Source: Deltaproteobacteria bacterium (GTDB taxonomy: Bacteria; Myxococcota_A; Polyangia; Haliangiales; Haliangiaceae). From it: DNA of 64,000 nt. Location: NCBI GenBank assembly GCA_026129065.1, contig JAHCIV010000002.1, forward strand, positions 1 to 64,000. Reading direction: 5' to 3'. Below the pieces are notes generated by a model that ran no database searches, had not been told where the DNA came from, and saw only the letters and a list, made by a program, of their open reading frames with translations. This document shows positions 2,457-26,788 of this stretch, piece by piece (positions within the stretch are counted from its first letter, which is position 1; each line of letters starts with the position of its first letter). A program made the translations under genes and the position numbers.

Positions 2457-4967
2457 ATGGGCCGCTTCCGAAGCCTCACACTCCTCTTGTGCCTGCTGGT
2501 ACCCGCGACCGCGGGCGCTGACGACCTCGACAAGCGGCTCGCCGCCTACGAGGCCGAGGCGCGCCAGCTCGGCACCGATCTCCCGCAGCCGAACGCGCAG
2601 ACGCCGACGCAGGGCCAGCGCAAGCTCGTCGACGCCGAGGTCGCGTACTCGCTCGGCGACTACGACACGGCGGCGCTGATGCTGTTCGATCTGGCGAGCA
2701 AGCCCGGTCCCGACCAGGAGGTCGCGACGTACTACCTCGGCGAGTCGCTGTTCCAGAAGGGCGACCGCGGCGCCGCGCGCGGCTACTACGACCAGGTCGT
2801 CGCGAAGAACAACGTCGCGAGCAAGTACTACCAGCCGTCGCTGCTGCGGCTCGTCGAGATCTCGATCGCGCAGAACGACACCACCGGCGTCGAGCCGTAC
2901 CTCACGGCGCTCGATCGCCTGTCGCCCGGCCTGCGCCTGCCGCTGGTCCCCTACGTGCGCGGCAAGTTCGCGTTCACGCAGGGCAAGCTCGACGAGGCGC
3001 TCGCGTACCTCCAGGACGTCCCCAAGGGCAGCTCGCACGAGCTCCAGGCCGCCTACTACACCGCGACGGCGCACGTCGCGAAGAAGGACCTCAACCGGGC
3101 GACCGACATCTTCACGGACCTCATCAACCGAAAGCCCAGGACGGCGAACGATCGCCGCGTGATCGAGCTGTCGCAGCTCGCGCTCGGCCGCCTGTACTAC
3201 GAGCGCGATCAGCCGTCGAAGTCGATCGACTCGTACCTGCTCGTCGACCGGCGCAGCGACCTGTTCCCGGACGCGCTGTACGAGGTCGCGTGGGTCTACG
3301 TGAAGAGCAAGCAGTTCGACAAGGCGCTGCGCGCGCTCGAGCTGCTGCACCTGTCGGCGCCGCAGTCGACGAAGACGCCGACGGTGCGCATCCTCGAGGG
3401 CAACCTGCGCGTGCGCAAGGCCCAGATGATCCGCCAGGCGCAGATCACCGGCACGCTCGACGCGACGAAGGACGACCCGCAGTCGCAGTACGACAAGGCC
3501 AAGGCGGTGTTCGCCGAGACGCACGACGCGTACTTCCCGTCGTACGAGGCGCTCCGCCAGATGGCGGAGTCGACGGGCGATCCGGCGCAGTACCTCGCGC
3601 AGATCGCGGGGCGCTCGTCGACGGTGTTCCAGGCGACGGCGCCGATCCCCGAGGCCGCGGCGCAGTACCTGCGCGACGAGCCCGAGGTGCAGCGCGTGGT
3701 CTCCGTCGAGACCGACCTCAACACGATCGAGCACAACATCACCGACGCGGAGAACACGATCGCGCGGCTCGAGGCGGTGCTCGGCGCGAACGACCGCACC
3801 GCCGTGTATCCGGCGCTGCAGGGCCGGCGCGCGCGCATGGGGCAGATCCAGGACGACCTGATCAAGATCCGCTCCGAGCTCGCCGATCAGCAGCTTCGGC
3901 TCGTCGACAGCCCGGCCGAGCTCGCGTCGCTGACGTCGAACCGCAAGGCCCTCGCGGCGCCGTACCTCGCGATGCCGAACGCCGAGCAGGCGTACGCTGA
4001 TCGCCTCGCGCAGACGCGCACGCAGTACGACGGGATCGACCAGGGCGCGGCCGACATCGACGCGCTCATCGACTCGACGCAGGCCGTGTCCGTCGCGCTG
4101 CGCAAGTACATGGTCGACGCCGGGTCCGCCGGCGGGCAACCGATCCCGGCCGATCAGAAGGGCACGATCACCGAGACGCTCGACCAGGTCGCGAAGGAAG
4201 CGCAGGCGATCGAGGCGGAGCTCGCGGACATCCACCGCGAGGTCCAGCTCGGGCGCGACCTCGCCGGCGTCGGCGACGACGGCCTGGCGAAGGCGCGCGG
4301 GGCGCGCAAGGCGATGAAGGCCGCGCTCGACGCCGAGCACAGGGCGCTCGCGGGGCCGGCGGCATCGGCGCGCGACAGGGCGGCGGCGCAGAAGCTCGCG
4401 GCGCTCGGCGACCGCGCGGCGCGCATCGCCGACAACCTCGCGCAGACCGACGCGCAGATCGACGGCATCGTCGACCGCGGCTTCGAGCAGGTGCGCGGCG
4501 CGATCGCGCAGGAGCGCGGGAACCTCGCCGGCTACAAGGACGAGCTCGCCGCGTACAACGCGGAGTCGCGCTCGATCGGCGGCACCGTCCTCGGCGGCAG
4601 CTTCAAGGAAGTGAAGGCGAAGTTCTACGACATCGTCATCCGCACCGACGTCGGCCTCGTCGACGTGAGCTGGTCGCAGAAGGAAGACAACGACGACGAC
4701 TTCAAGCGGCTGAACCTGTCGCGCACGCGCGACCTGAAGCAGCTGAAGGACGAGTTCCGCGACGTCCTCGAGCCGCCGAACAAGACGGCACCGAAGAAGC
4801 AGGACTCGCTCGTGCCGCCGCAGGAGGGTCCCGCCGGCGGCAGCCCCGACAAGGGCGCCACCGACACGCGCGTGAAGCCCGGCGGCGACCAGGGCGTCGG
4901 ACCGGCGGCGCCGGTCGTGAGGCCCGGCGACACGCAACCTCCCGCACCGCCGAAGGGAGGCCGCTGA
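2457..4967 (+). CDS. Periplasmic TPR protein (836 aa) with a long coiled-coil region and a Pro-rich C-terminal tail (GltC/AgmK-like?)
   Basis: Signal peptide MGRFRSLTLLLCLLVPATAGADD. N-terminal YxxAxxxY-type TPR motifs, then heptad-rich coiled coil. The stop overlaps the next start (TGATG). Confidence 0.75.
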   Translation: MGRFRSLTLLLCLLVPATAGADDLDKRLAAYEAEARQLGTDLPQPNAQTPTQGQRKLVDAEVAYSLGDYDTAALMLFDLASKPGPDQEVATYYLGESLFQKGDRGAARGYYDQVVAKNNVASKYYQPSLLRLVEISIAQNDTTGVEPYLTALDRLSPGLRLPLVPYVRGKFAFTQGKLDEALAYLQDVPKGSSHELQAAYYTATAHVAKKDLNRATDIFTDLINRKPRTANDRRVIELSQLALGRLYYERDQPSKSIDSYLLVDRRSDLFPDALYEVAWVYVKSKQFDKALRALELLHLSAPQSTKTPTVRILEGNLRVRKAQMIRQAQITGTLDATKDDPQSQYDKAKAVFAETHDAYFPSYEALRQMAESTGDPAQYLAQIAGRSSTVFQATAPIPEAAAQYLRDEPEVQRVVSVETDLNTIEHNITDAENTIARLEAVLGANDRTAVYPALQGRRARMGQIQDDLIKIRSELADQQLRLVDSPAELASLTSNRKALAAPYLAMPNAEQAYADRLAQTRTQYDGIDQGAADIDALIDSTQAVSVALRKYMVDAGSAGGQPIPADQKGTITETLDQVAKEAQAIEAELADIHREVQLGRDLAGVGDDGLAKARGARKAMKAALDAEHRALAGPAASARDRAAAQKLAALGDRAARIADNLAQTDAQIDGIVDRGFEQVRGAIAQERGNLAGYKDELAAYNAESRSIGGTVLGGSFKEVKAKFYDIVIRTDVGLVDVSWSQKEDNDDDFKRLNLSRTRDLKQLKDEFRDVLEPPNKTAPKKQDSLVPPQEGPAGGSPDKGATDTRVKPGGDQGVGPAAPVVRPGDTQPPAPPKGGR

Positions 4968-7900
4968 TGCGCCTCGCGAAGCTAGCCGCGCTCACGGCGC
5001 TCCTCCTCGGCGGCGGCCTCGCGCTCGCCCAGCCTCCGGGCGGTACGCAGCCGCCGGCGCGGCCGCTCCCCGGCACGACGGGCCCCGGCTCGGGTCCGGG
5101 CCTCGGGGCGCCGGCGCAGCCGACCCGGCGCGTCGACACGCGTCCCCTCGTCCTCACCGACAAGGAGATGAAGGAGCTCGAGGACCTCGAGAAGGACCAC
5201 GACCGCTTCAGCGCGGCGGCGGCGGAGCACGACAAGCGCATGCGCACGATCGCGAAGCGCGAGTACGACACGCGCGTCGCCGAGCTCCAGAAGCGCTACG
5301 CCGATCGGATCGCGAAGACGGTCGCCGAGAAGGGCAAGCGCCACGGCGACACGATCGCGATCCTCGAGAAGTTCCTCGCCGATCACCCCGCGCACGAGCA
5401 GTTCACGCCGGACGCGATGTTCCGCCTCGCCGACCTGTACCTCGACCGCGCCGAGGACGAGGTCGAGGCGCGCCTCGCGGCGCTCGATGCGCTGCCGCAG
5501 GGCGGCCCGATCCCGCCGCCGGATCCCGCGTCGATCGTCGCCGACTACACGCCGGCGCGCGACATGTGGGAACAGATCCTGACGAAGTTCCCGTCGTACC
5601 GGCAGACGCCGTCGACGCTGTACCTGTTCGCGTACTACACGAAGTACAAGGACGAGCGGAAGGCGCTCACCGCGTTCCTCGCGCTGGCGTGCTCGAACCG
5701 CTTCAAGTGGAACGACAAGCCGATCAAGGTGCCGGAGCGCGCCGAGGCCTTGAAGCGCGCCGAGCTGAAGACGGTGCGCGATCCGTACGGCGACTGCGAG
5801 GCGTACCCGGGCTCCGACACCGAGCTCATCCGCCACGCGTGGGTGCGCGGCGTCGCCGACCACCACTTCGCGATCCCCGGCGAGCTCGACGAGGCGATCA
5901 CCTCGTACAAGAAGGTCGCCGACAAGGGGACGGACTCGAAGCTGTACGCCGAGGCGCTCTACAAGCTCGCGTGGTCGTTCTACAAGCGCGACTTCCTGAA
6001 GGACGCGATCGAGCACTTCGACAGGAGCGTGAAGCTCTACGACTCGATCGTCGCGACCGGTGCGCAGCCGACGCTCGAGCTGCGCGACGAGTCGATCCAG
6101 TACATCTCGGTCGCGTTCACCGACCCGTGGCCGGGCGAGACGAACACGAACCCCGCGAACGCGCTCGCGCGCACGAAGGACTTCTACCGCGGCCGCGAGA
6201 ACGAGCCGCACGTGCGCGACATCTGGGTCGCGATGGGCAAGGCGTTCGCCGACATCCAGGCGTGGGACGAGAGCATCGCGTCCTACCGGATCGCGATCGG
6301 CCCGCCGTGGGAGCTGAACCCGAAGAACCCGATGGTCCACCAGGAGATCGTCAACATCTTCGAGGCCAAGGGCGACAAGATGGCGGCGGACTCGACGGCC
6401 GCGGAGCTCGCGACGAAGTACGCGCCGGGGACGGCGTGGTACGCGGCGAACGAGAAGGACCGCGAGGCGATGGACAACCAGCGCCGCATCGCGGAGCGCG
6501 CGCTGTACGCGGCCGCGCGCAACACCCACTCCGCGGCGACGACGATGCGCAAGGAGTGGGAGGCGAGCAAGGGCAAGCTCGGCACCCGGGAGGAGTGGCT
6601 CGCGCTCTACAACAAGGCCGTCGAGCTGTACCGCGTGTTCATCTCGACGTACCCGCAGTCGGACTACGTCTACGAGTTCAACTACAACACCGCCGAGGCG
6701 CTGTTCTACAGCGAGCGCTACCTCGAGGCCGTCGACTCGTACAAGTGGGTCCGCGACCACCGCGACATCAGCCAGCAGTTCTACATCGACGCCGCGCGCA
6801 GCGTCGTGCTCGCGTACGAGGCCGAGGCGGCGCGCCAGGTCGCTGCGGGTCGGCTCGTCGCGCTGAGGATCCCGACGATCGAGGAGATGAAGAAGCTGCC
6901 GCAGCCGTTCGCGCCGCAGCCGATCCCGGACATCTACCTGAAGATGCAGGCCGAGTACGACACCTTCCAGGAGAAGGTCAACGACCCGGCCGAGGCGCCG
7001 AAGCAGGGCACGAACGCGGCGATGATCTCGCTGGCGTACCTCCACATCGACGACGCGATCGCGCGCTTCACGAAGGTGATGGACAAGTTCTGCGGGCAGC
7101 CGTACGCGGTGAAGTCCAAGGACGGCATCCTCGCGATCTACGAGGCGCAGTCGAAGTTCGACGCGATCGAGGCGACGAACAAGAAGTTCATCACCGCGAA
7201 GTGCGGCGACGACAAGGCGATCAAGGACGCGATCGTGCAGAACCGATCGCTCAACTTCTCGCGCGCGAACCTCCTGTTCGCGAACAAGGAGTACAACAAG
7301 GCCGCCGAGGCCTTCTACACGTTCTACAAGACCGCGCCGGAGAAGGACACCGACCTGCCGGTCGCGCTCTACAACGCCGCGCTCAGCTACAAGTACGGCG
7401 ACCGCCCGAACAACGCGATCGCGCTGTTCAAGGAGTTCACCGACAAGAAGGACAAGCCGTTCCGCGAGAGCCCGTTCTACCTCGATGCGATGCGGCTCCA
7501 GGCGGCGAGCTACCAGGCGAAGTTCGACTACAACAACGCGGTCGCGACGTACCTCGAGCTGTACGCGACGACGAAGCGCTACAAGGCGCAGGGCCTGAAG
7601 GCGCCGCCGCCGCTGGAGGGCGAGGCGCCGCGCACGCTCGATCAGATCGGGCTCGACGCGCTGTTCAACGCGGCCGTCGCGTCCGAGCTCAACCGCGACT
7701 TCAAGAAGGCCGTCGAGCTGTACACGCAGTACCAGGGTGTCGAGCCCGACGTGCGGCGCAAGGACCGCGCGCACTGGTCGGTGATCGGCATCTACCGCCA
7801 GTCGGGCGACCTCAACTCGATGACCGAGTCGCAGATGTTCTGGCGCGCGCGGTACGGCAAGGACCCGCAGAACCAGGACGACTTCATCCAGACCTATTAC

Positions 7901-8534: not shown

Positions 8535-9665
8535 ATGACGACGTCGCTCGTTGGTAGGAACATGACCCGGCGTCTCGGGGCGCTCCTCCTGTGCTTCGCC
8601 GCGGCGTGCAGCGGCGGCAACAAGAAGGAGTCGACGACGCCCGGCGGGAAAGGGAGCGGCGACGACCCGTCGATGAAGGATGGGACCGTGCCGGGTGGGC
8701 CGCCGGGCGGCGATGGCCCGGTGAGCTCGGGCGGGACTTTTGGTGGGCCGGCGACTCCCGGTGGGCCGGCGACTCCCGGCGGGCCGGCGGGCGACCCCGA
8801 CGGCATCAACGGGCCGCCGGTCACGATGCCGAACCTCGACCGCGATCCGGCACAGGCCAAGGCCGAGGTCGACGCGCACCTGAAGCTCGCGAAGGCGGCG
8901 CTGTCGCAGCAGATCCCCGACGGCGAGCTCGCGCTCAAGGAGGCGCGGCTCGCGCTCGCGGCCGATGCGTCGAGCATCGATGCGGCGGCGATGATCGCGT
9001 TCGCCTACTACCACAAGAAGCTGTACGACACGGCCGAGCTCATCCTCGACGACCTGTTCAACGCGGCGAGCGAGCCGCGCAAGCGGGCGGCGAAGGCGAA
9101 CCCGTACTGCTTCTACGTGTACGGGCTCATCTACGACAAGACGAACCGGTTCGAGCAGGCGCAGCTCGCCTTCAAGTCCGCGGTCGAGCTCGACGGGAAC
9201 TTCGCGAGCGCGCTCGTGAACCACGGCATGTACCAGCTGCGGAACAGCCAGTACGCGGCGGCGCAGGCGACGTTCGAGAAGGTCACGAAGCAGCTCAACC
9301 GGATCGACGCGATCACCCTGACGTCGCTCGGCTCGGCGTACCGCGGCCGCTCGGCGGAGTTCCCGCAGAACAACCCCGAGCGCAACCAGTACATCCTCAA
9401 CGCGGCCGCGGCGTACGAGCGCGCGATCAACCAGAGCGGCGGCACGTACGCGCCGGCCGTCTACAACCTCGGGCTGCTCTACCTCGACACGGATCCGTAC
9501 CCGGGGATCGCCGACCCGGTCGCGCGCCTCAACAAGGCGAAGGACCAGTTCGATCGCTACCAGAAGATGGCGGGCTTCGACGCGAAGCTCTACGACGCGC
9601 GGATGAAGGACATCACGCGCGCGATGAAGAAGGCGCAGCAGAAGAAGCCGGGGAAGAACCCGTAG
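8535..9665 (+). CDS. TPR lipoprotein (GltE/AglT-like)
   Basis: Lipobox LLLCFAAAC|SGG, Gly/Pro-rich linker (GGPATPGGPATPGGPAG), then TPR motifs. The alternative start MTRRLG at 8562 gives a cleaner signal peptide. Confidence 0.7.
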   Translation: MTTSLVGRNMTRRLGALLLCFAAACSGGNKKESTTPGGKGSGDDPSMKDGTVPGGPPGGDGPVSSGGTFGGPATPGGPATPGGPAGDPDGINGPPVTMPNLDRDPAQAKAEVDAHLKLAKAALSQQIPDGELALKEARLALAADASSIDAAAMIAFAYYHKKLYDTAELILDDLFNAASEPRKRAAKANPYCFYVYGLIYDKTNRFEQAQLAFKSAVELDGNFASALVNHGMYQLRNSQYAAAQATFEKVTKQLNRIDAITLTSLGSAYRGRSAEFPQNNPERNQYILNAAAAYERAINQSGGTYAPAVYNLGLLYLDTDPYPGIADPVARLNKAKDQFDRYQKMAGFDAKLYDARMKDITRAMKKAQQKKPGKNP

Positions 9666-9717
9666 ATCGGCTGCCCGTGGAGCCGGCCTCCGTCCGAGTC
9701 ATACTGAGGAGACGATC

Positions 9718-10020
9718 ATGAAATCTCTCGCCCTGACCCTCGCGACCCTCGCGACCCTCGCCGCCACGGCCGGGATCGCGCGCGCCGAAGGTTGCCCCGA
9801 CGAGAACGACGGCGAGAAGAAGCAGGGCAAGTTCCACATCGAGTACGTCAACGGCAAGCCGGTGACGGTGATCGACACGGTCGTCTCGGTGTGCGGCAAG
9901 GTCCCGCGCCCGAGCGTGGCCTACGTCCTCACGCCGAAGAACATCGACTACGAGTGGGAGAGCCTGAAGCAGGACTTCATGCCGCTCATCCTGGCAACCG
10001 TGAAGAAAGCCCCCTTCTGA
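9718..10020 (+). CDS. Small secreted protein (100 aa), GltF/NfsF-like
   Basis: RBS gaggag 7 nt upstream. Signal peptide MKSLALTLATLATLAATAGIARA. TGATG overlap with the next gene. Confidence 0.6.
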   Translation: MKSLALTLATLATLAATAGIARAEGCPDENDGEKKQGKFHIEYVNGKPVTVIDTVVSVCGKVPRPSVAYVLTPKNIDYEWESLKQDFMPLILATVKKAPF

Positions 10021-18021: not shown

Positions 18022-19082
18022 CAGAACCCCACCAGCGCGGAGACGCCCCACGCCGAGGTGTTGTGGATGCCGGTGAAGCGCGCCGGCACGATCTTGACGC
18101 TGTCGGGGAGGTCCCAGTCGCGCGTCGCGACGGCGGCGATGCCGAGGCCGGCGGCGGTGCCGAGGAACAGCGACACGCCGGCCGCGTTCTCGTCCCTGGT
18201 GCCGACGGCGACGAGGCCGCCCGCCAGGATGCCGAGGATGCCGCCGACGTCGATCAGCAGCGTGCGGCCGCGGCTCATCTTGACCTGCGTCGACACGTAC
18301 GCGCCGACGAGGAGGCCGACGTCGCCGGCCGCCACGACCGTGCGGAGCGACGGCTCCTCGGCGAACGCGAGGTGCCCCCACAGCGTGAGCACCGTCGACC
18401 ACAGGAGGAACGAGTTCGTGAGCGCGACGTCGCCCTGCGTCGGCTTCCACGACTTCCACAGCCCGATGCCGGCGGCGATGCCGACGCCCTGCGCGGCGAG
18501 CGAGATCACCGCGGCGTCGGTCGCCTCCGCGAAGCCGTCGTTGATCGCGAGCGCGTTCCACGCGGCCCACGTCTGCGCCGAGTTGTACAGCTGCGCCTCG
18601 CCCTGCGCGACGCCGCGGTGCGAGGCGAGCGCGGCGATCGCGAGCGAGCCGCCGACGGACAGCGTGTAGACGGCGGCGCTCTCGCGATCCGACCGGCAGT
18701 CGACGATCACGCACACGTTCGCGGCGGTGAAGATGCCGCCGACCGTCGACCAGAACAGCAGCTCGCCGCGCGCGGTGCGGTTCGCGCGGCTCGTCGCGGT
18801 CATCGACTCGTCGCGCTCGAACGCGCGGGTCAGCGCGCCGGCGCGCCGGCCGGCCGGGTGCTGCGGCCAGCGCGCCGCGAGCTCGGCCAGGCGCGAGCTC
18901 GCGAGCGAGCGATCCCCACTCGCCGCCTTCGCGAACGCGTCGTCGTACGCGCTCCACACCGGATCGGGCGGAGGTGGCGCCGGATCGGGCACGGGATCGG
19001 CCGGTCGTGGTTCGGGAGCCTGTGCGTGCGCGATCCCGTGAAGGATCGCGAGCACGGCGACGGCGGTGACGGGCGCGCGCAT
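18021..19082 (-). CDS. Tandem paralog of the previous protein (353 aa). Signal peptide, Pro-rich N-region, Gly/Ala-rich repeats, ends in ALVGF.
   Basis: ORF track. MRAPVTAVAVLAILHGIAHA signal. Overall similarity to 16927..18021. The stop overlaps the downstream start by 1 nt. Confidence 0.55.
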   Translation of the reverse strand: MRAPVTAVAVLAILHGIAHAQAPEPRPADPVPDPAPPPPDPVWSAYDDAFAKAASGDRSLASSRLAELAARWPQHPAGRRAGALTRAFERDESMTATSRANRTARGELLFWSTVGGIFTAANVCVIVDCRSDRESAAVYTLSVGGSLAIAALASHRGVAQGEAQLYNSAQTWAAWNALAINDGFAEATDAAVISLAAQGVGIAAGIGLWKSWKPTQGDVALTNSFLLWSTVLTLWGHLAFAEEPSLRTVVAAGDVGLLVGAYVSTQVKMSRGRTLLIDVGGILGILAGGLVAVGTRDENAAGVSLFLGTAAGLGIAAVATRDWDLPDSVKIVPARFTGIHNTSAWGVSALVGF

Positions 19083-19174
19083 CGTGCGGGCGTTGTATCA
19101 CGCGATTCTTGCGTGGTTTCAGGTAGTTCCGAGGCTTGCCGCGGATTGCGACGACCTTGCCGATCTCGTCTACA

Positions 19175-19597
19175 ACTACGCCGATGAAGACCCTCACGAT
19201 CTGCGCGATGGCGCTCGCGATGGCGGCCTGCGGCGGCAAGAAGGACGACGCGAAGAAGGAGGAAGCCAAGGACGACGCGCTCACGTGCGCGCAGGTGGCG
19301 GACAAGGCGGTCGCCGCGCTCGGCGATCGCGGCGGTCCGGTGAAGGACAAGCTGCGGCCGATCTACGAGGAGCGCTGCACGCAGGACAAGTGGCCGGCCG
19401 ACGTCATGGCGTGCTTCGCGACGGCGAGCGGCTTCGAGGCGCTGCAGGGGTGCCGGCAGCGCCTGGTGTTCGAGCCGCGCGAGAAGCTGATCCAGCAGAT
19501 CCGCGGCGTGATGGGCGCGATGGGCGGCGGGATGGGTGGACGTCCGCCGATGGGGCACGGCGGCGCGGGATCGGACGCAAAAGCGCCGGCGCCGTGA
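19175..19597 (+). CDS. Small lipoprotein (lipobox LAMAAC|GG) with Lys/Asp-rich and Gly/Met-rich tails
   Basis: Internal ATG at 19175 (MKTLTICAMALAMAACGGKK), in frame with track ORF 19136..19597. Confidence 0.5.
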   Translation, partial: TTPMKTLTICAMALAMAACGGKKDDAKKEEAKDDALTCAQVADKAVAALGDRGGPVKDKLRPIYEERCTQDKWPADVMACFATASGFEALQGCRQRLVFEPREKLIQQIRGVMGAMGGGMGGRPPMGHGGAGSDAKAPAP

Positions 19598-19640
19598 CGC
19601 CCGGCTCGCGTTCGCGGGCGCCATGTTCCACACTCGAGAG

Positions 19641-20504
19641 ATGGCGCGCCGTACGCTGCTGCTGTCGCTGGTAGCGCTCGCGCTCGCCGCGTCGACGGCC
19701 GCGGCGAAGCCGAAGCCGTGGGAGTTGCTGCCGCTGCCGCCGCCGATGCCCGCGGCAACGTCGTCGGGGCACGTCGAGGTCGCCGACGGGGCGAAGATCT
19801 ACTACGCGATCTACGGACGCACCGACGGCAAGGCCGATCCCGTGATCCTCCTGCACGGCGGGATGGGCAACTCCGATCACTTCGGCTTCCAGGTGCCGGA
19901 CCTCGTCGACAGGTTCCAGGTGATCGTGATCGACAGCCGCGGGCAGGGCCGCTCGACGCTGTCGAAGGCCAAGCTCAGCTACCACGCGATGGCCACCGAC
20001 GTCGTCGCCGTGATGGACGCGCTCAAGATCGGCAAGGCCGCGCTCGTCGGGTGGAGCGACGGCGGCGAGATCGCGCTCGACCTCGCGATCCACCACCCCG
20101 ACCGGGTGGCGAAGCTGTTCGTGTTCGGCTCGAACTACGACGCGAACGGCCACAAGCCCAACAGGAACCCGACCACGTTCCAAAGCTACAACGCGAAGTG
20201 CGCGTCCGACTTCGCGAAGATCTCCAAGGACCCGAAGAAGTACCAGGCCGTCGTCGAGGCCCTCCTGCCCGTGTGGCGCAACCCGGCCGTGTTCACGAAG
20301 GACCAGCTGCGCTCGATCAAGGCGCCGACCGTCGTCTCCGACGGAGAATTCGACGAGATCATCGAGCTCGCGCAGGTCCGCGAGATGGCCACGCTGATCC
20401 CGAACGCGAAGCTGATCGTGTTCCCGAACACCTCGCACTTCGCGCTGTGGCAGGACCCGCTGTCGTTCAACAAGGCACTCGTGGAGTTCTTGATCGCGAA
20501 ATAA
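19641..20504 (+). CDS. Secreted alpha/beta-hydrolase fold protein
   Basis: Signal peptide MARRTLLLSLVALALAASTAAA. HGGMGNSDHF oxyanion-region motif and nucleophile elbow GWSDGG. Confidence 0.8.
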   Translation: MARRTLLLSLVALALAASTAAAKPKPWELLPLPPPMPAATSSGHVEVADGAKIYYAIYGRTDGKADPVILLHGGMGNSDHFGFQVPDLVDRFQVIVIDSRGQGRSTLSKAKLSYHAMATDVVAVMDALKIGKAALVGWSDGGEIALDLAIHHPDRVAKLFVFGSNYDANGHKPNRNPTTFQSYNAKCASDFAKISKDPKKYQAVVEALLPVWRNPAVFTKDQLRSIKAPTVVSDGEFDEIIELAQVREMATLIPNAKLIVFPNTSHFALWQDPLSFNKALVEFLIAK

Positions 20505-20559
20505 CAGGGATTAGCCTCAATGTCAGTCCGCGGGTGTATTCGGATTGTGGAGGTGGCGA

Positions 20560-22899
20560 ATGATCAGCGCGAGCCAGAACTTCGTGTATACGTGCAACGG
20601 GACTGAGGGCACCAACTTCCTCGTGACGCTCCCACGAGCGCAGCCGGATGACGGGTACTTCGTCACGGCCTCGCTTGCGGCGGTGACGTCGATCTTCAGC
20701 GTGAGCCTGCCGAACACCGTGGCCGGAGATCGGACGACGACGCAGTTTCGCGTGAAGACGTCCAGTGCGGTGGCGAACGGCGACAAGATCGAGCTCCACA
20801 TCTACGACCCTGCGGGGACGTACATCGTGGACCTGCGGACGTACGGTGTGATCGCCGACGTCGACGACGGCGGCGCGGGCGGCGCGATCGCTTCGGCGAA
20901 CGGCGATGCGATCTCCCAGGCGTTCGCCGATCACCCGAGCAATGCGGTGTTCGTCCTGCCGCACGGCACGATCTACGTGAACCGCCCGATCTCGGGCCCC
21001 CTGACGGCGGCGCTGCGAATGCACGGCCTCACCGACGTGGTGCTGACCGGCTGGGGACCGGGCGCCACGCGGCTGGTGATGACCGGGCCGCAGCACAGCG
21101 GCCTGACCCAGGTCATCGAGGTCCAGAATTGCGTGCGAGCGACGATCCGGGATCTGACGGTCGCGCACGGGCCAAATATGTCGAATCCCAGTGGCACCCA
21201 GCAGAATCACCATATCCAGCTCGGTCGCAGCGATATGGCCAATGACATCGTCGATACGGTGATCCGGCACGTCCACTGTGGTCCGTGCATCGGCGACGGT
21301 ATCCGCGCGTGCGGTGGGACTACGCACTACCTGCGCAACACGCGCGTGCTCGACGTGACGATGCGGACCGGAGGCCATCCGCTCGCGACCAACGGCTCGC
21401 GCTCGTGCATCTCGTTCCAGCTCGGCATCATCGAGCTCGAGCTGGGGAACTTCTTCCTGCACGGCGCGAAGAACACGCCGATCGACTTCGAGCCGAGCGG
21501 CGGAACGCTGCGGTCGTTCGACATCCACGACGGCATCGTCGACAACTCCGGAGGTCAGACCGTGGGGGCGGTGTCCTTCGTCGGCTTCCCGGGGAGCCCG
21601 CTGACGGACTCGCGGATCGCGAACGTCAACGTGATCGAGGGACAGGTACAGGTCCTCCAGACCGACAACTGCACGCTCGACAACGTGAACATCTATGCGT
21701 CCGGACAAGCGGGGATGTCCGGATACGGCGGCCCACTCCTGTACATCTACCAGCGGAACACCGGACTGAACGTGCGCAACGTGGACATCTTCCGCGACAC
21801 GGGTTCGGCGACCGGTCCACTCGTCGAGGTGAACAGTACCGCCGTCGGTGGATCGTCGAGTCGGCTCACGATCGAGGGAGGTACGTGGCGCACCACGACG
21901 ACCGTCGGCGGTAGCAGCGACGGTGCGCACGTAAGGCTCGTCGATGCCGATCGCCTCGCGATGCGCGGTACGCGGCTGCGGCTCGAGGATCCGACGCCGT
22001 CGTCGCACCACGCGGTGATCGTCCGGCCCGTGCAGGCGAGCATCGACGCGCTCACGTTCGACGGCATCACGGTCGAATCGCCGAACGGGAAGCTGACGAC
22101 CGGCCTACTCCTGGCCGCGCAGGACGTCCTCGGCACGCCGCGCAGCATCCGCGACATCACGGTGACGGATTCGCGCTTCACGTCGTCCGTCACGACCGGG
22201 ATCAAGTTCGACAACTCCACGGCGACCACCGCTGTCATCGATCCCCAACCGCTCGTGCAGGGCTGCGACTTCACCGGCGCGACGAATCCCTGGATCACGG
22301 ACCACGCCGCCTTTGGCAAGGTCTATCCGATCCTGGCCGGCAACAAGGGATCGGTGTGCGAGCTGGCGGGGACGGTGACTCCGGAGAACAACGTGACTGC
22401 GGTCCAGGGAAGTATCTACACCTGGATGAATGGGAATGCGACACAGCGTCTGATCAAGACCTCCGGAACCGGCACGTCCGGGTGGAAGCAGATCCCGAGC
22501 GCGACGCGCTGGCAGTCGGTCCAGCGCGGGACCGTCGAGACCAACATCACCTACGACGGCGGCGAGATGCTGCACGCGAACGCCGCGGCGGCGTCGATCG
22601 CGATCCCGCTCCAGGGGCCGAACGTCGGCGACCGCATCACGAACCTCGTCGCTCGCCTGAAGGGGACCGGGACCGCGCAGACCGTCCAGGTCTCGCTCGT
22701 GCGTGCGGACGGCGACGGGACGACCACCACGGTCCAGACGCTGTCGGCGGTGAACCCGGCGAACGCATGGGCGACCTTCACGGTCGCGCTGGGAACGCCG
22801 GAGGTGGTGCCGGCGGACAAGTCGTACTTCTGGAGCATCTCGCTGCCGAATGCGAACACGTTCGTCGGCAACCTCGGGTACACGTTCGACCGGCTGTGA
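20560..22899 (+). CDS. Right-handed beta-helix (pectate-lyase/tailspike-like) protein, 779 aa, with no signal peptide
   Basis: RBS ggaggtgg then ATG at 20560 (MISASQNFVYTC). Periodic beta-helix rungs (VxNxxI/V, NCTLDNVNIY). Visibly lower GC and more A/T-ending codons than its neighbours, and an AT-richer 55-bp leader. Confidence 0.7.
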   Translation: MISASQNFVYTCNGTEGTNFLVTLPRAQPDDGYFVTASLAAVTSIFSVSLPNTVAGDRTTTQFRVKTSSAVANGDKIELHIYDPAGTYIVDLRTYGVIADVDDGGAGGAIASANGDAISQAFADHPSNAVFVLPHGTIYVNRPISGPLTAALRMHGLTDVVLTGWGPGATRLVMTGPQHSGLTQVIEVQNCVRATIRDLTVAHGPNMSNPSGTQQNHHIQLGRSDMANDIVDTVIRHVHCGPCIGDGIRACGGTTHYLRNTRVLDVTMRTGGHPLATNGSRSCISFQLGIIELELGNFFLHGAKNTPIDFEPSGGTLRSFDIHDGIVDNSGGQTVGAVSFVGFPGSPLTDSRIANVNVIEGQVQVLQTDNCTLDNVNIYASGQAGMSGYGGPLLYIYQRNTGLNVRNVDIFRDTGSATGPLVEVNSTAVGGSSSRLTIEGGTWRTTTTVGGSSDGAHVRLVDADRLAMRGTRLRLEDPTPSSHHAVIVRPVQASIDALTFDGITVESPNGKLTTGLLLAAQDVLGTPRSIRDITVTDSRFTSSVTTGIKFDNSTATTAVIDPQPLVQGCDFTGATNPWITDHAAFGKVYPILAGNKGSVCELAGTVTPENNVTAVQGSIYTWMNGNATQRLIKTSGTGTSGWKQIPSATRWQSVQRGTVETNITYDGGEMLHANAAAASIAIPLQGPNVGDRITNLVARLKGTGTAQTVQVSLVRADGDGTTTTVQTLSAVNPANAWATFTVALGTPEVVPADKSYFWSISLPNANTFVGNLGYTFDRL

Positions 22900-22904
22900 C
22901 GCCG

Positions 22905-23218
22905 CTTGTCGCGGGGAGGTCGAGCGCCTCGGGAGCGCCGACGGCGCCCGGGGCGGCGGTCGCGAGCACGGTGCCGGCGGCGTCGAAGTTGGCCTCGGTG
23001 AGGAGCCCGGTCGTCGAGACCTTGAGGACGTAGGCGACGACCCGCTGCCCGGCGTCGCTCGGAGACTGCCACGCGAGGTGGATCCGCTGCCGGTTCGTCG
23101 CCGTCGCCACGAACGCCGGGACCGGCGGCGGCCGCGTGAGGTCGACGCGCACGACGAGCGAGCCGGTGCCGAACGACGCGCCGGCCGTCGCGTTCGCGAC
23201 GATGTTAGCGCGCCGATG
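22905..23218 (-). pseudogene. Possible 5' remnant of a minus-strand gene encoding a fibronectin-III-like domain (…TRPPPVPAFVATATNRQRIHLAWQSPSDAGQRVVAYVLKVSTTG…), truncated where the low-GC beta-helix gene begins
   Basis: GC3-rich fn3-like reading frame only on the minus strand. All three plus-strand frames here are Arg/Ala junk. The frame continues as junk antisense to the beta-helix gene until a stop at 22778. Confidence 0.2.
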
Positions 23219-24457
23219 CACGGCCCCACCGGCATCTCGTCCGTCCCCGATCTCACGATCATCCACGCCGCCGCGAACGCGCAGTTCGGCAGCGGCCTCA
23301 CCGCCGTGCGCTGGTCGAGCGCGACCCGCGACGACCTCGTCGTCGGCGCTCCCGGCGCCGACACGCACGGCCACGTCTTCGTGTTCCGCGGCGGCACCCT
23401 GACCGCCGGGACGCGCACCGCCTCCACCGCCGACCTCCACATCACCGCCAGCGCCACCTCCCCGGGCTTCTTCGCGACCGGCTCCCTCGGCCGCACGCTC
23501 GCCACCGCCGACGTCGACGGCAACGGCGTCGACGACCTCGTGATCGCCGCCCCCACCGGCGGCGCCACGATCGGCGGCATCGTCGTCCTCTACGGCGACA
23601 CCGTCACCGGCAACATCGCCCTCTCCGATCTCGACGCCGGCGGCGCCAACGGCTCGATCGCCGAGCTGTTCCGCGACCCGAGTGGCACCCCCGGCCACCA
23701 GCTCGGCTTCTACCTGCACTCGGTCGGCCCCACGGAGGGCCCGACCGACATCACCGACGACCTCGTCGCCGCCTACGTCGACGACTACAACACGATCGGG
23801 GATTCGGTGTTCGTGCTCCGCTCCGACGGCACGCGGCCGCCGACTCCCGGCGTCTCCGCGCGGACGTTCGCGATCGGCCGCGACGTCCGCATCGACTTCG
23901 CGCAGACGGTCTACCGCTCGACCGAGTGGGGCTCGCAGGTGACGAGCATCGACGACCAGAACGGCGACGGCTCCCGCGACCTCGTGATCGGCGCCTACCG
24001 GACGATCAGCGACGCCGGCCAGGTGCTGATCATCGACGGCAAGACCGTCGGCACCGCCGGCGTCGCGAGCACCGCCGACGCGGGAGTCGTGCTCACGACG
24101 ATCACCGGCACCACGAAGTCCAAGCTCGGCGCCGTCGTGTGGACCCACGACAAGGCGGTGGCCGACATCGACGGCGACGGGCGGCAGGACCTGGTGCTCG
24201 GCGGGGTCCAGGGCACGCAGGGCCGCGCCTTCGTGTGGTTCGGCGGGGCGATCCCGAAGGGCGCCACGACCCTGGCGAGCGCCGCGACGGCGATCGACGC
24301 ACCCGCCGGCTTCGCGTTCACCCGCCAGACGCCCAAGGGGCCGGCGGGGCAGGCGCGCTGGGTCGGCGACCTCGACGGCGACGGGCTCGAAGATGTGTGC
24401 TGGGCGGCGCCGTTCGACAACAACGGCGATGAGATGTTCGAGGTCCTCTCGGACTAG
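23216..24457 (+). CDS. FG-GAP (integrin-alpha-like) repeat protein with no recognisable signal peptide
   Basis: Repeats DVDGNGVDDLVIAAP, DDQNGDGSRDLVIGAY, DIDGDGRQDLVLGG and DLDGDGLEDVCWAAPFDNNGD. The start is uncertain. The first ATG after the junk N-extension is at 23216. Confidence 0.7.
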   Translation: MHGPTGISSVPDLTIIHAAANAQFGSGLTAVRWSSATRDDLVVGAPGADTHGHVFVFRGGTLTAGTRTASTADLHITASATSPGFFATGSLGRTLATADVDGNGVDDLVIAAPTGGATIGGIVVLYGDTVTGNIALSDLDAGGANGSIAELFRDPSGTPGHQLGFYLHSVGPTEGPTDITDDLVAAYVDDYNTIGDSVFVLRSDGTRPPTPGVSARTFAIGRDVRIDFAQTVYRSTEWGSQVTSIDDQNGDGSRDLVIGAYRTISDAGQVLIIDGKTVGTAGVASTADAGVVLTTITGTTKSKLGAVVWTHDKAVADIDGDGRQDLVLGGVQGTQGRAFVWFGGAIPKGATTLASAATAIDAPAGFAFTRQTPKGPAGQARWVGDLDGDGLEDVCWAAPFDNNGDEMFEVLSD

Positions 24458-24469
24458 TATCCTCGGCAC

Positions 24470-26788
24470 GTGCCCGAGCCGGGAGAGTTGATCGGACCGT
24501 TCCGGCTGATCTCTCAGCTCGGGAAGGGTGCGATGGGAGAGGTCTGGCGCGCGCGCGACGAGCGCCTCGATCGGTACGTCGCGCTCAAGGTGCTCCCGCC
24601 CGAAGCCGCGGAGGACATCGAGCGCCGCGCCCGCATGCTGCGCGAGGCGCGCGCGGCGGCGGCGATCCAGCACACGAACGTCGTCACGTTGTTCGACATC
24701 GTCAGCCAGGACAACAACGACATCCTCGTGATGGAGCTCGTCGAGGGCCGCACGCTCTCCGAGGTGCTGCGCCGCGACGGTTCGCCCGGTGTGGCGATGG
24801 CGCTCGCGTGGATCGAATCGATCGCCGCCGCGCTCGCCGCGGCGCACGAGCGCGGGATCCTTCACCGCGACATCAAGGCGGCGAACATCATGGTCTCCAC
24901 CGAGGGGATCAAGGTGCTGGACTTCGGGCTCGCGAAGCTCAAGGGAAGCGATCCGTTCCAGTCCGTCACGCGCTCCGTCGCGAAGGCCCCGCCGGCGAGC
25001 GCGCTCGATGGGACGATGCCGGGCGACGTCTCGCTCGACGCCACCCAGCGCGACGGGATCGTCCAGAGCCCGAGCCTCGCCGTCGCGAGCTACCGCACGC
25101 ACGTCGGGCAGCTCCTCGGCACGCCGCTCTACATGGCGCCCGAGCAGGTCGACGGACAGCTGCCCGACGAGCGCAGCGAGGTGTTCTCCGTCGGCGTCCT
25201 CGCGTTCGAGATCCTGACCGGCAAGCCGCCCTATGCGGCGACCTCGCTCGACGAGCTGTTTCGCGAGATCACGCAGAACCAGACGCCCGAGCTCGTCGAC
25301 ATCCCGGCTCCGGTGGTGGACATCGTCGAGCGCGCGCTCGCCAAGGATCCCGCGGCGCGGTACCCGACGATGAAGGCACTGCGCGATGCCGTCGCGCAGA
25401 CCCGCCGCCGGCTGTTCGCCCCGAGCGGTCGCCGCGGGATCTTCGGGGCGGCGATCGGCGGGACGCTCCTCCTCGCCGCAGCAGCAGCAGCGCTCGTCGT
25501 GTGGTGGTTCACGCGCGCGCCGGCGACGCGCCCCGGCGACAAGGAGGTCGCGCGCGCGCTCGAGGAGTACAACGTCTTCTACAACGACAAGGCGCTGTCC
25601 TCGCTGCGCGGGGCGCTCGCGGTCGCGCCCGACCACCCGCTCGCGAACGCGTACATGGTGCTGTTCGGTGGCGTCGACGCCGATCGCAACGCCGCCCTCG
25701 CGACGGCGCGCCGCATCCGCGACCAGGTCGGCGACCGCAGCAAGGATCGCGCGCTCCTCGAGGCCGCGATCGCATTCGTCGACCGCGGACCGAAGGCCGC
25801 GCGCGCGGCGCTCGTCGACGTCGGGGCGAAGAGCGATCGCGAGCTGGCGTTCTGGGCGGCGGAGCTCGACTACCGTGCCGGCAACTTCACGGCGGCGAAC
25901 GCGGAGTACAAGTCACTCCTCGACGATCCGGCGCCCGAGTTCCGCGGGCGGATCTACGACCACTACTCGTCGGTGCTGCTCTACCTCGACGAGCCCGCCG
26001 AGGCGCTCCGCATCGGCACGCTGTATCGAGATGCGTTTCGCGGCGAGGCCGATGCGGTCGGCGTGTACGCGACGACGCTCGCCGCCGCCGGCAAGTTCGA
26101 CCTCGCGATCCAGGCCGCCGAGGAGGCCGTCCGCCTCTCCGAGGGTGAGGATACGCTCGCGGGACTCGCGAAGGTGGTCGCGCTCTCCGGCGACCATGCA
26201 CGCGCGCGCGAGTTGTACCAGCGCTCCCTCGAGCGCGCCGGTGCGGCGCGGCGCCCGCTGCGGCGCGCGGCGCTGGCGCTCCTGCAGTGGATCGACGGAG
26301 ATGCGCGGGCCAAGGACACCGTCGCGCCGTGCCTGCCCGGCGGATCCGACGCGACCACCTCGACACGCGGCGTGTGCCTGTTCGTCGCGGGCGTCGTCGA
26401 TCCGCGGCGCGGCGAGGAGGCGGCGAAGCTCCTCGACGCACTCGCCGCCGAGGCGAGCGATCCTCGCCCGGCCTACGGGTCGCCGGCCTCGCTCGCCCGG
26501 CTCGTTCGCGCTCGCCTCGCGTTCTTCGGCGGCGCCTGCCTCGTCGACCCGGCGCGCCCGGACGTGGCTCCGCTCCATCCGAGCGACGTCTCCGAGGAGG
26601 CCTTCACGCAGGACGTCGACTTCTACGGCGCCTACCACGTGCCGTTCTTCGCATCCTGGGCGCTGTGCGAGCGCGCGGCGCTCCTCGCGTCCCACGGCCA
26701 GCGCCTCGCGGCGAAGGCCCTGCTCGAACGAGCGATCGCGCGCGGCGCGCATCGCACGTGGCTCGCGAATGCAATGAAGTCAATGTAG
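24470..26788 (+). CDS. Ser/Thr protein kinase with a TM segment and a C-terminal TPR/tetratricopeptide-like domain
   Basis: GTG start. GKGAMGEVW, VALKVL, HRDIKAANIM, DFGLA and PLYMAPE kinase subdomains. TM helix GAAIGGTLLLAAAAAALVVWWF. Confidence 0.85.
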   Translation: MPEPGELIGPFRLISQLGKGAMGEVWRARDERLDRYVALKVLPPEAAEDIERRARMLREARAAAAIQHTNVVTLFDIVSQDNNDILVMELVEGRTLSEVLRRDGSPGVAMALAWIESIAAALAAAHERGILHRDIKAANIMVSTEGIKVLDFGLAKLKGSDPFQSVTRSVAKAPPASALDGTMPGDVSLDATQRDGIVQSPSLAVASYRTHVGQLLGTPLYMAPEQVDGQLPDERSEVFSVGVLAFEILTGKPPYAATSLDELFREITQNQTPELVDIPAPVVDIVERALAKDPAARYPTMKALRDAVAQTRRRLFAPSGRRGIFGAAIGGTLLLAAAAAALVVWWFTRAPATRPGDKEVARALEEYNVFYNDKALSSLRGALAVAPDHPLANAYMVLFGGVDADRNAALATARRIRDQVGDRSKDRALLEAAIAFVDRGPKAARAALVDVGAKSDRELAFWAAELDYRAGNFTAANAEYKSLLDDPAPEFRGRIYDHYSSVLLYLDEPAEALRIGTLYRDAFRGEADAVGVYATTLAAAGKFDLAIQAAEEAVRLSEGEDTLAGLAKVVALSGDHARARELYQRSLERAGAARRPLRRAALALLQWIDGDARAKDTVAPCLPGGSDATTSTRGVCLFVAGVVDPRRGEEAAKLLDALAAEASDPRPAYGSPASLARLVRARLAFFGGACLVDPARPDVAPLHPSDVSEEAFTQDVDFYGAYHVPFFASWALCERAALLASHGQRLAAKALLERAIARGAHRTWLANAMKSM

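Follow-up and report, generated by a model that had tools for sequence, protein, structure and literature searches.

The described proteins that come closest to the one reported here are phage tailspikes and depolymerases, for which we compared phi29 gp12, S2-4 of Klebsiella phage K64-1, K1 lyase, TSP2 of CBA120 and the tailspikes of P22, HK620 and Sf6, and the A-modules of the mannuronan C-5 epimerases AlgE4 and AlgE6 of Azotobacter vinelandii. Tailspike-fold glycan enzymes are also known from bacterial chromosomes but are rare there. The example is WceF of Pantoea stewartii, which carries a twin-arginine translocation (Tat) signal and is located inside an exopolysaccharide (EPS) gene cluster, that of stewartan (PMC7949094). 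A parallel of another kind is offered by the MAT fibre proteins of Bdellovibrio, a predatory "deltaproteobacterium", which have a conserved N-terminal beta-rich module and exchangeable phage-like distal domains and whose genes are dispersed in the chromosome (PMC10769870). Here, we describe a gene at positions 20560-22899 of a 64-kb window (positions 1 to 64,000 of contig JAHCIV010000002.1 of a Deltaproteobacteria bacterium, the whole stretch that was analysed), called the target below, whose product is identical to the NCBI entry [quoted passage not shown]. The explanation that we favour, and hold to be fairly probable, is that the target encodes a protein of an undescribed family, composed of an N-terminal domain (NTD), a capped beta-helix with a glycan-acting groove, a knob and a C-terminal domain (CTD), and that it came to this site as part of an inserted block.

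Insertion at the hydrolase-kinase junction

The target lies between a hydrolase gene and the gene for a Ser/Thr kinase with tetratricopeptide repeats (TPR), and the features of this region are the following.

19536-20504: alpha/beta-hydrolase gene (Pfam Abhydrolase_1, 1.2e-28)
20482-20504, plus strand: 3' end of the hydrolase gene (VEFLIAK*), copy 1 of the duplicated junction and left border of the block; the ortholog in the related contig L013 keeps its 65% identity right up to the last residue
20505-20559, plus strand: leader of 55 bp, 56% GC, with the ribosome binding site (RBS) GGAGGTGG at 20549-20556
20560-22899, plus strand: target coding sequence (CDS), ATG start, 779 amino acids and stop
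22900-23215, minus strand: coding-like remnant (...PPPVPAFVATATNRQRIHLAWQSPSDAGQRVVAYVLKVSTTGLL...), with a minus-strand-like phase of GC at third codon positions (GC3) in 22951-23220
23216-24456, plus strand: fragment of an FG-GAP repeat CDS, 413 amino acids (Pfam FG-GAP, 3.9e-20)
24437-24456, plus strand: relic of the hydrolase 3' end, copy 2 (TTCGAGGTCCTCTCGGACTAG, reading FEVLSD*), right border of the block, 13 nt before the kinase start
24470-26788, plus strand: Ser/Thr kinase and TPR gene, with an ortholog in L013

Horizontal acquisition had been proposed from base composition, but it is the arrangement of the locus that bears it out. The only relative in the synteny comparison is L013, a Joint Genome Institute (JGI) metagenome contig of 67.6% GC, in which the orthologs of the hydrolase (65% identical) and of the kinase (61% identical over 791 amino acids) are separated by 17 nt, compared to 3,965 bp in the window, so that the block is absent at the orthologous site of this one relative. 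The relic next to the kinase matches the hydrolase 3' end of L013 (GTCGAGTTCCTCTCGGCCAAGTAG, VEFLSAK*) in the same frame and with its stop. When the whole window was searched on both strands with the 17-mer from the L013 hydrolase 3' end, positions 24438-24454 were the sole match with two or fewer mismatches, and control 17-mers gave 0.02-0.2 hits per window, which puts the chance of a match at the relic site at about 1e-4. Since the hydrolase 3' end is present twice and flanks the block, the block is best read as an insertion into a pre-existing junction between the hydrolase and the kinase. Judged from this duplicated junction, we regard it as shown that the target reached its present place within a 3.9-kb composite block, made up of the target, the minus-strand remnant and the FG-GAP fragment, and that the insertion left a diverged duplication of about 20 nt of the hydrolase 3' end.

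Apart from the target, the block consists of two truncated pieces, both native-like in composition. The minus-strand remnant has no clear start or proper end, and its frame continues without coding signal into the 3' end of the target; by eye it looks FN3-like, but a Pfam search with the remnant gave no match and hence no support for this reading. A long minus-strand open reading frame (ORF) at 22778-25636 was rejected as a gene, since except for about 22900-23220 it only mirrors the FG-GAP and kinase genes. The FG-GAP fragment has no signal peptide and takes its last codons and its stop from the hydrolase relic. Upstream of it, the ORF from 22850 is an Arg-rich noncoding read-through, and the ATG at 22850 was rejected as the FG-GAP start because it only adds this stretch without coding signal. 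An FG-GAP gene is also found two genes away from a 50% identical homolog of the target, P0002, on the contig of the latter. Scans for promoters, terminators, tRNAs and att-like repeats around the block gave nothing useful.

According to the initial annotation, the target and its leader have a GC and GC3 below those of all neighbouring genes. When 44 codon-model-based gene calls in the window (GC 70.5%) were compared, this was true for GC at synonymous third positions (GC3s), with 0.883 in the target versus 0.91-0.99 in the five genes upstream and 0.91-0.94 in the three downstream, but not for GC, where the adjacent hydrolase (0.672) is hardly above the target (0.662). The leader has the lowest GC among the intergenic stretches listed. 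In a ranking of the 44 genes from the lowest value upwards, the target comes 5th for GC (z -1.45) and 4th for GC3s (z -1.77). Most of the drop in GC sits in the first codon position (GC1 of 0.596 against a mean of 0.691, GC2 being average) and therefore reflects the amino acid composition of the protein, which is rich in T (11.6%), G (11.2%), N (5.6%), I (5.9%) and S. The synonymous codon-usage fit is the poorest of the 44 (z -5.9), while the fit per codon (-0.819) resembles that of six other genes, several of them within the polysaccharide locus downstream. There is a step in GC3 inside the target, from about 0.87 in the NTD, helix and knob to 0.96 in the CTD (Fisher p 0.0014, post hoc), which hints that the gene is a mosaic. 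The target is found in the low tail of the composition and is not an outlier, and composition, being weak evidence here, would not by itself establish a foreign origin.

Target protein, family and terminal modules

The ORF and its RBS-bearing leader are as first described, and so is the lack of a secretion signal. An in-frame stop at 20512-20514 limits any upstream extension of the ORF to 15 codons or fewer, the N-terminus (MISASQNFVYTCNG...) has no basic n-region, hydrophobic core or twin arginine, and the closest homologs share the start point of the target (MPTATEQNFVY and MVIEHEQNFVY). Because there is no room upstream, no n-region or core and a common start, we conclude that the target truly lacks a Sec or Tat signal. 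The terminator scan gave no terminator-like site between the hydrolase and the target, and the two genes are probably cotranscribed.

An AlphaFold (AF2) prediction from the single sequence gave a mean predicted local distance difference test (pLDDT) of 37, and an alignment of 142 sequences was used instead, giving a model with a pLDDT of 88.6 and a predicted template modelling score (pTM) of 0.79. The following parts are predicted.

20560-20832, plus strand: NTD, amino acids 1-91 (about 85-91 amino acids), beta-sandwich with the motif DRTTTQFRV in the AF2 model, in the place of a signal peptide or phage-type N-terminus
20833-20937, plus strand: linker and capping alpha-helix, amino acids 92-126 (helix 109-124), AF2 model
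20938-22239, plus strand: right-handed parallel beta-helix, amino acids 127-560 approximately, from the AF2 model, Foldseek and conservation
22240-22503, plus strand: knob, amino acids 561-648, ending in ...GSxY...NG...K..GTG.TGW, conserved across the family
22504-22896, plus strand: low-confidence linker, amino acids 649-670, and CTD, a beta-sandwich in the AF2 model, amino acids 671-779

The model shows a right-handed parallel beta-helix of many rungs, capped by a helix on its N-terminal side, as is characteristic of the pectin-lyase-fold superfamily, and a Foldseek search of it against BFVD and the PDB returned tail spikes and proteins of the pectate-lyase superfamily. The beta-helix of pectate-lyase or tailspike type that had been read from the rung periodicity of the sequence is in this way recovered by the model, the structural matches and the family profiles alike. 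No paralogs of the four target domains are found elsewhere in the window.

A word-indexed search found only five proteins, the target itself and four metagenomic homologs of 42-55% identity, and a second one, with a profile (A2), only the same five close relatives. An exhaustive profile search from these five gave 586 representatives at E<=1e-3, 88 of them at <=1e-30, with matches that cover target positions 88-640 approximately; homologs at 50-55% identity carry the same architecture of NTD and core. With the 61-member profile, the best PDB matches were the A-modules of AlgE6 (1.5e-13) and AlgE4 (5e-12), with further matches to PfbA, GH110 and a pectate lyase; the match to AlgE4 and AlgE6 falls in the region of the linker and capping helix and in the first rungs. 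Among the 61 relatives, Pfam recognised Beta_helix in 15, Pect-lyase_RHGA_epim in 10 and NosD in 5, and 12 matched the PHROG "tail spike" phrog_2234. Across about 120 members, six polar residues are strongly conserved (R281 in 100%, E311 in 97%, Q287 in 94%, D309 in 90%, H217 in 86% and D246 in 85%). All six are kept in the target with a spacing of roughly one rung, and we infer that they form a catalytic or substrate groove.

The members of the family are found in two settings. In three of them, 33-37% identical to the target (P0013, P0015 and P0010), the gene is the final large one of a phage tail module and is followed by the lysis genes, whereas P0006, P0009, P0005 and the gene in an Amycolatopsis genome are lone genes in bacterial contexts. 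The latter was the only match in the GTDB genomes, and it lies at a contig end (the collection did not include the source metagenome-assembled genome [MAG]). The bacterial loci have no neighbours in common, and none of their neighbours matches a convincing phage family. A search of viral contigs for related loci found none, and cluster look-ups of the members gave no names beyond "hypothetical protein". The family is, by these searches, undescribed and so far seen only in metagenomes, with members that are both last tail genes of phages and lone genes of bacterial chromosomes.

Three classes of N-terminus occur in the family. Tat or Sec/lipoprotein signals are present in P0006, P0009, P0025, P0011 and P0017, and are Tat-like in the first three; a recurrent phage-type extension is the second class; and the NTD is the third, with the target, P0002, P0003 and P0041. 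In a rough neighbour-joining tree of the core, the NTD clade stands beside the bacterial members with Tat signals, and the phage clade is one step further out. As placed by this tree, the target's own branch is bacterial and sister to the Tat-bearing members, with the NTD replacing the signal. A phage origin had been held possible from the start. It gains from the family members in tail modules and from the presence of the NTD in tail-region proteins, but the nearest sisters are Tat-signal-bearing genes of bacterial chromosomes, and a phage need not have been the direct donor. One phage-contig member, P0010 (426-2996 of L009), has a hydrophobic, Sec-like or transmembrane N-terminus (MKHRIISILLLFSLVFLMG...), an uncommon feature in a virion spike.

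The NTD is not confined to the beta-helix proteins. A profile search with it gave 96 proteins, mostly of 84-150 amino acids, and it also heads short proteins of 210-250 amino acids (P0120, P0128, P0131 and P0146) whose C-terminal half is homologous to the target CTD, as seen in the ends ...VNYDRP of P0146 and ...YTFDRL of the target. It is thus combined with a beta-helix and the CTD in the target, with the CTD alone in P0120, and with other parts in P0103, P0139 and P0143. P0120 is encoded on the chromosome of a Kofleriaceae (Myxococcota) MAG with no phage genes around it. All three metagenomic contigs with a readable context (L010, L011 and L014) are phage structural regions. On L010, NTD-like proteins at 4811-5377 and 10001-10450 flank two Pect-lyase_RHGA_epim tail proteins; L011 has two adjacent NTD-like copies (9114-9983 and 10001-10456); and on L014 the NTD lies inside a protein of 1,286 amino acids that adjoins a Peptidase_S74 protein. 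The small proteins of L010 and L011, which are uncultivated phage contigs, carry the NTD-like domain as their C-terminal 75 amino acids or so, and in the phage proteins of the three contigs the position is C-terminal or internal, never N-terminal. Among the sequences fetched, the CTD was seen only in the target, P0002 and the short proteins with NTD and CTD. Pfam had no match for the NTD, knob or CTD, and PDB profile searches with the NTD and CTD returned noise only. A unit of about 50 amino acids resembling the knob (…GSxY…G…K..G.G.TGW) is repeated four to five times in the unrelated metagenomic proteins P0112, P0138 and P0152, which have no Pfam match, and P0008 has a similar knob motif at its N-terminus.

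As had been noted for the vicinity of the gene, no phage genes accompany the target, and neither phage genes (tail and capsid genes included) nor a tRNA or integrase were found within the 64 kb. The rest of the window is chromosomal, with Obg, TPR proteins, the Ser/Thr kinase, methyltransferases and a GMC oxidoreductase. About 9 kb downstream of the target lies a Wzx/Wzy-type polysaccharide locus (approximately 31.8-61.5 kb) that encodes MBOAT, WbqC, GNAT and Bac_transf proteins, several GT4 glycosyltransferases, a UDP-glucose dehydrogenase, a Laminin_G_3 protein, Wzc-like and Wza-like proteins, Wzy_C and a Wzx flippase; in a number of these genes the GC is as low as in the target or lower. 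Upstream, a bacterial homolog of the major vault protein (MVP) is encoded at 14405-16963 on the plus strand (Pfam MVP_shoulder 3e-25, Vault_3 7e-11), adjoined divergently by an RtcR-type sigma-54 activator (12716-14293, minus strand). On L013, the ORF at 11-817, which directly precedes the hydrolase ortholog, shares 37-38% identity with the C-terminal regions of two tandem genes of the window (10020-11435 and 11476-12729). If these are orthologous, 6.8 kb (12730-19535, with RtcR, the MVP homolog and three unknown genes) would be a second block absent from L013.

Proposed function and competing explanations

We consider it most likely, from the model and the conserved residues, that the target is a beta-helix enzyme that cleaves or modifies glycans and carries modules for binding or oligomerisation. 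The groove lined by R281, E311, D309, Q287, H217 and D246 on successive rungs would bind a polysaccharide and cleave or otherwise modify it, and the knob and the two beta-sandwiches would serve in oligomerisation, in binding of a glycan or partner, or in both. Like tailspikes and Tat substrates, the protein would fold in the cytoplasm, and it would then leave the cell by a route other than Sec or Tat, e.g., by lysis, in vesicles or through docking by its NTD. Of the depolymerase or tailspike that was originally proposed, the fold and the family stand, while the enzymatic activity is only what we infer.

Several points weigh against this explanation. Assignment to the fold rests on the predicted structure and on family-level profiles, because the target sequence alone has no match in Pfam (E<=0.1), PHROGs or the PDB sequences. 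The catalytic rung motif of AlgE is absent from the target, so that the catalytic chemistry cannot be assigned, and since the target has neither a signal peptide nor a known partner for export, it is only assumed to act outside the cell. For the insertion, the synteny comparison has one relative only, and there is no tRNA in the window, no integrase or transposase among the neighbours and no att-like or longer repeat beyond the duplication of about 20 nt. The mildly atypical composition implies either that the transfer is old or that the donor was compositionally similar. A tblastn search of 50,697 cultured phage records (INPHARED) with the target and with the phage member P0013 found no match. 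The block holds nonphage fragments whose composition is native-like, which makes a bacterial source, or a rearrangement within the genome, no less likely than transfer straight from a phage. Instead of a phage, some other (myxo)bacterial locus may have served as the donor.

The proximity of the polysaccharide locus raises the question of whether the target is simply a housekeeping enzyme that, like WceF, trims the EPS made by the Wzx/Wzy-type genes downstream, its position then being functional. The sister members share with WceF the presence of a Tat signal, but the target lacks one, and it is separated from the locus by the kinase, methyltransferase, GMC oxidoreductase and other genes. Its arrival in a composite insertion between hydrolase and kinase does not fit a functional placement either, nor does the lack of common polysaccharide-synthesis neighbours around the homologs in other bacteria, and we regard this explanation as unlikely. 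An acquisition is denied altogether if the order hydrolase, target, FG-GAP fragment and kinase is ancestral and the block was deleted in the L013 lineage. With a single comparator, it could indeed have been lost there by recombination across the duplicated hydrolase 3' end. However, the two flanking copies still require an earlier insertion, so that a deletion in L013 would not remove the need for one, and the block holds truncated genes, which makes this account very improbable.

That the target shares its block with these truncated pieces could also mean that the whole block consists of rearranged fragments, in which the target is a recently arrived intact ORF without a role in its host. The missing export signal and the poorest synonymous codon fit in the window agree with such a functionless passenger. 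On the other hand, 779 codons have stayed open in a genome of 70% GC behind a strong RBS, all residues conserved in the family are kept, and the homologs at 50-55% identity with the same NTD and core indicate long-term maintenance of the clade; a passenger is distinctly unlikely in our view. Much the same low probability is given to the idea that the target is an orphan receptor-binding spike for host or prey recognition, whose NTD docks onto a particle (of a phage, a prophage or tailocin-like) that is encoded in another part of the genome and with which the protein leaves the cell. This would account for the missing signal peptide, which is typical of virion proteins, for the NTD-like domain in the tail-region proteins of L010, L011 and L014, and for the use of the NTD as an exchangeable N-terminal module on different distal parts. 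Against it, there are no tail or capsid genes within 64 kb of the target or around the Kofleriaceae gene with NTD and CTD, the NTD-like domain of the phage contigs forms the C-terminus of small proteins or an internal part of a large one, and the phage beta-helix members P0013 and P0015 have no NTD.

A more far-reaching idea, to which we give a low probability, has Myxococcota taking the NTD from phage tails as a module for docking or sorting. It would head dispersed, signal-less chromosomal proteins with exchangeable distal parts, which would exit by a non-Sec, non-Tat route and be mounted on a common surface or particle platform to recognise and degrade the polysaccharides of prey or kin. 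If the NTD is indeed a docking or export module, it would be of wider interest.

Comparison with described systems

The acquisition itself is of an ordinary kind, and the case is instructive rather than surprising; it is the family of the protein and its end domains that are undescribed. The locus is a clean and datable example of a tailspike-fold gene dropped into an operon junction. It also defines a family, absent from cultured-phage databases, of 586 representatives with a conserved R/E/D/Q/H/D groove, and reveals three database-unmatched domains (NTD, knob and CTD) whose shuffling connects proteins of phage tails with proteins encoded on myxobacterial chromosomes. An active enzyme would be a candidate depolymerase for a polysaccharide of a poorly studied soil or sediment lineage.

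In contrast to the phage tailspikes, the target is carried by the chromosome of a bacterium, is not accompanied by phage genes within the 64 kb and has no sequence match in cultured phages, and its NTD and CTD match nothing known. Tailspikes bind their particle through an N-terminal adaptor, a role that the NTD may or may not share: it forms a module of its own and recurs in proteins of phage tail regions, but there it is C-terminal or internal. Similarity to the beta-helix of the AlgE4 and AlgE6 A-modules is present at the level of the family profile. The 2PYG paper is said to give YG(F/I)DPH(D/E) as the catalytic motif of AlgE4; the alignment ends at AlgE residue 148, just before the catalytic rung, and the target continues with CIG245-DGIRAC and has no DPH motif. 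Unlike AlgE, the target lacks the RTX-type, Ca-binding R-modules that serve type I secretion and instead ends in the knob and a beta-sandwich. Unlike WceF, it has no Tat signal, lies outside an EPS cluster and shows no detected sequence similarity to that enzyme. The target can be likened, by description, to the Bdellovibrio MAT fibres in its module logic, although the conserved MAT domain follows a signal peptide and the MATs are long fibres. Should the docking idea be true, the NTD docking set would be the myxobacterial counterpart of these fibres.

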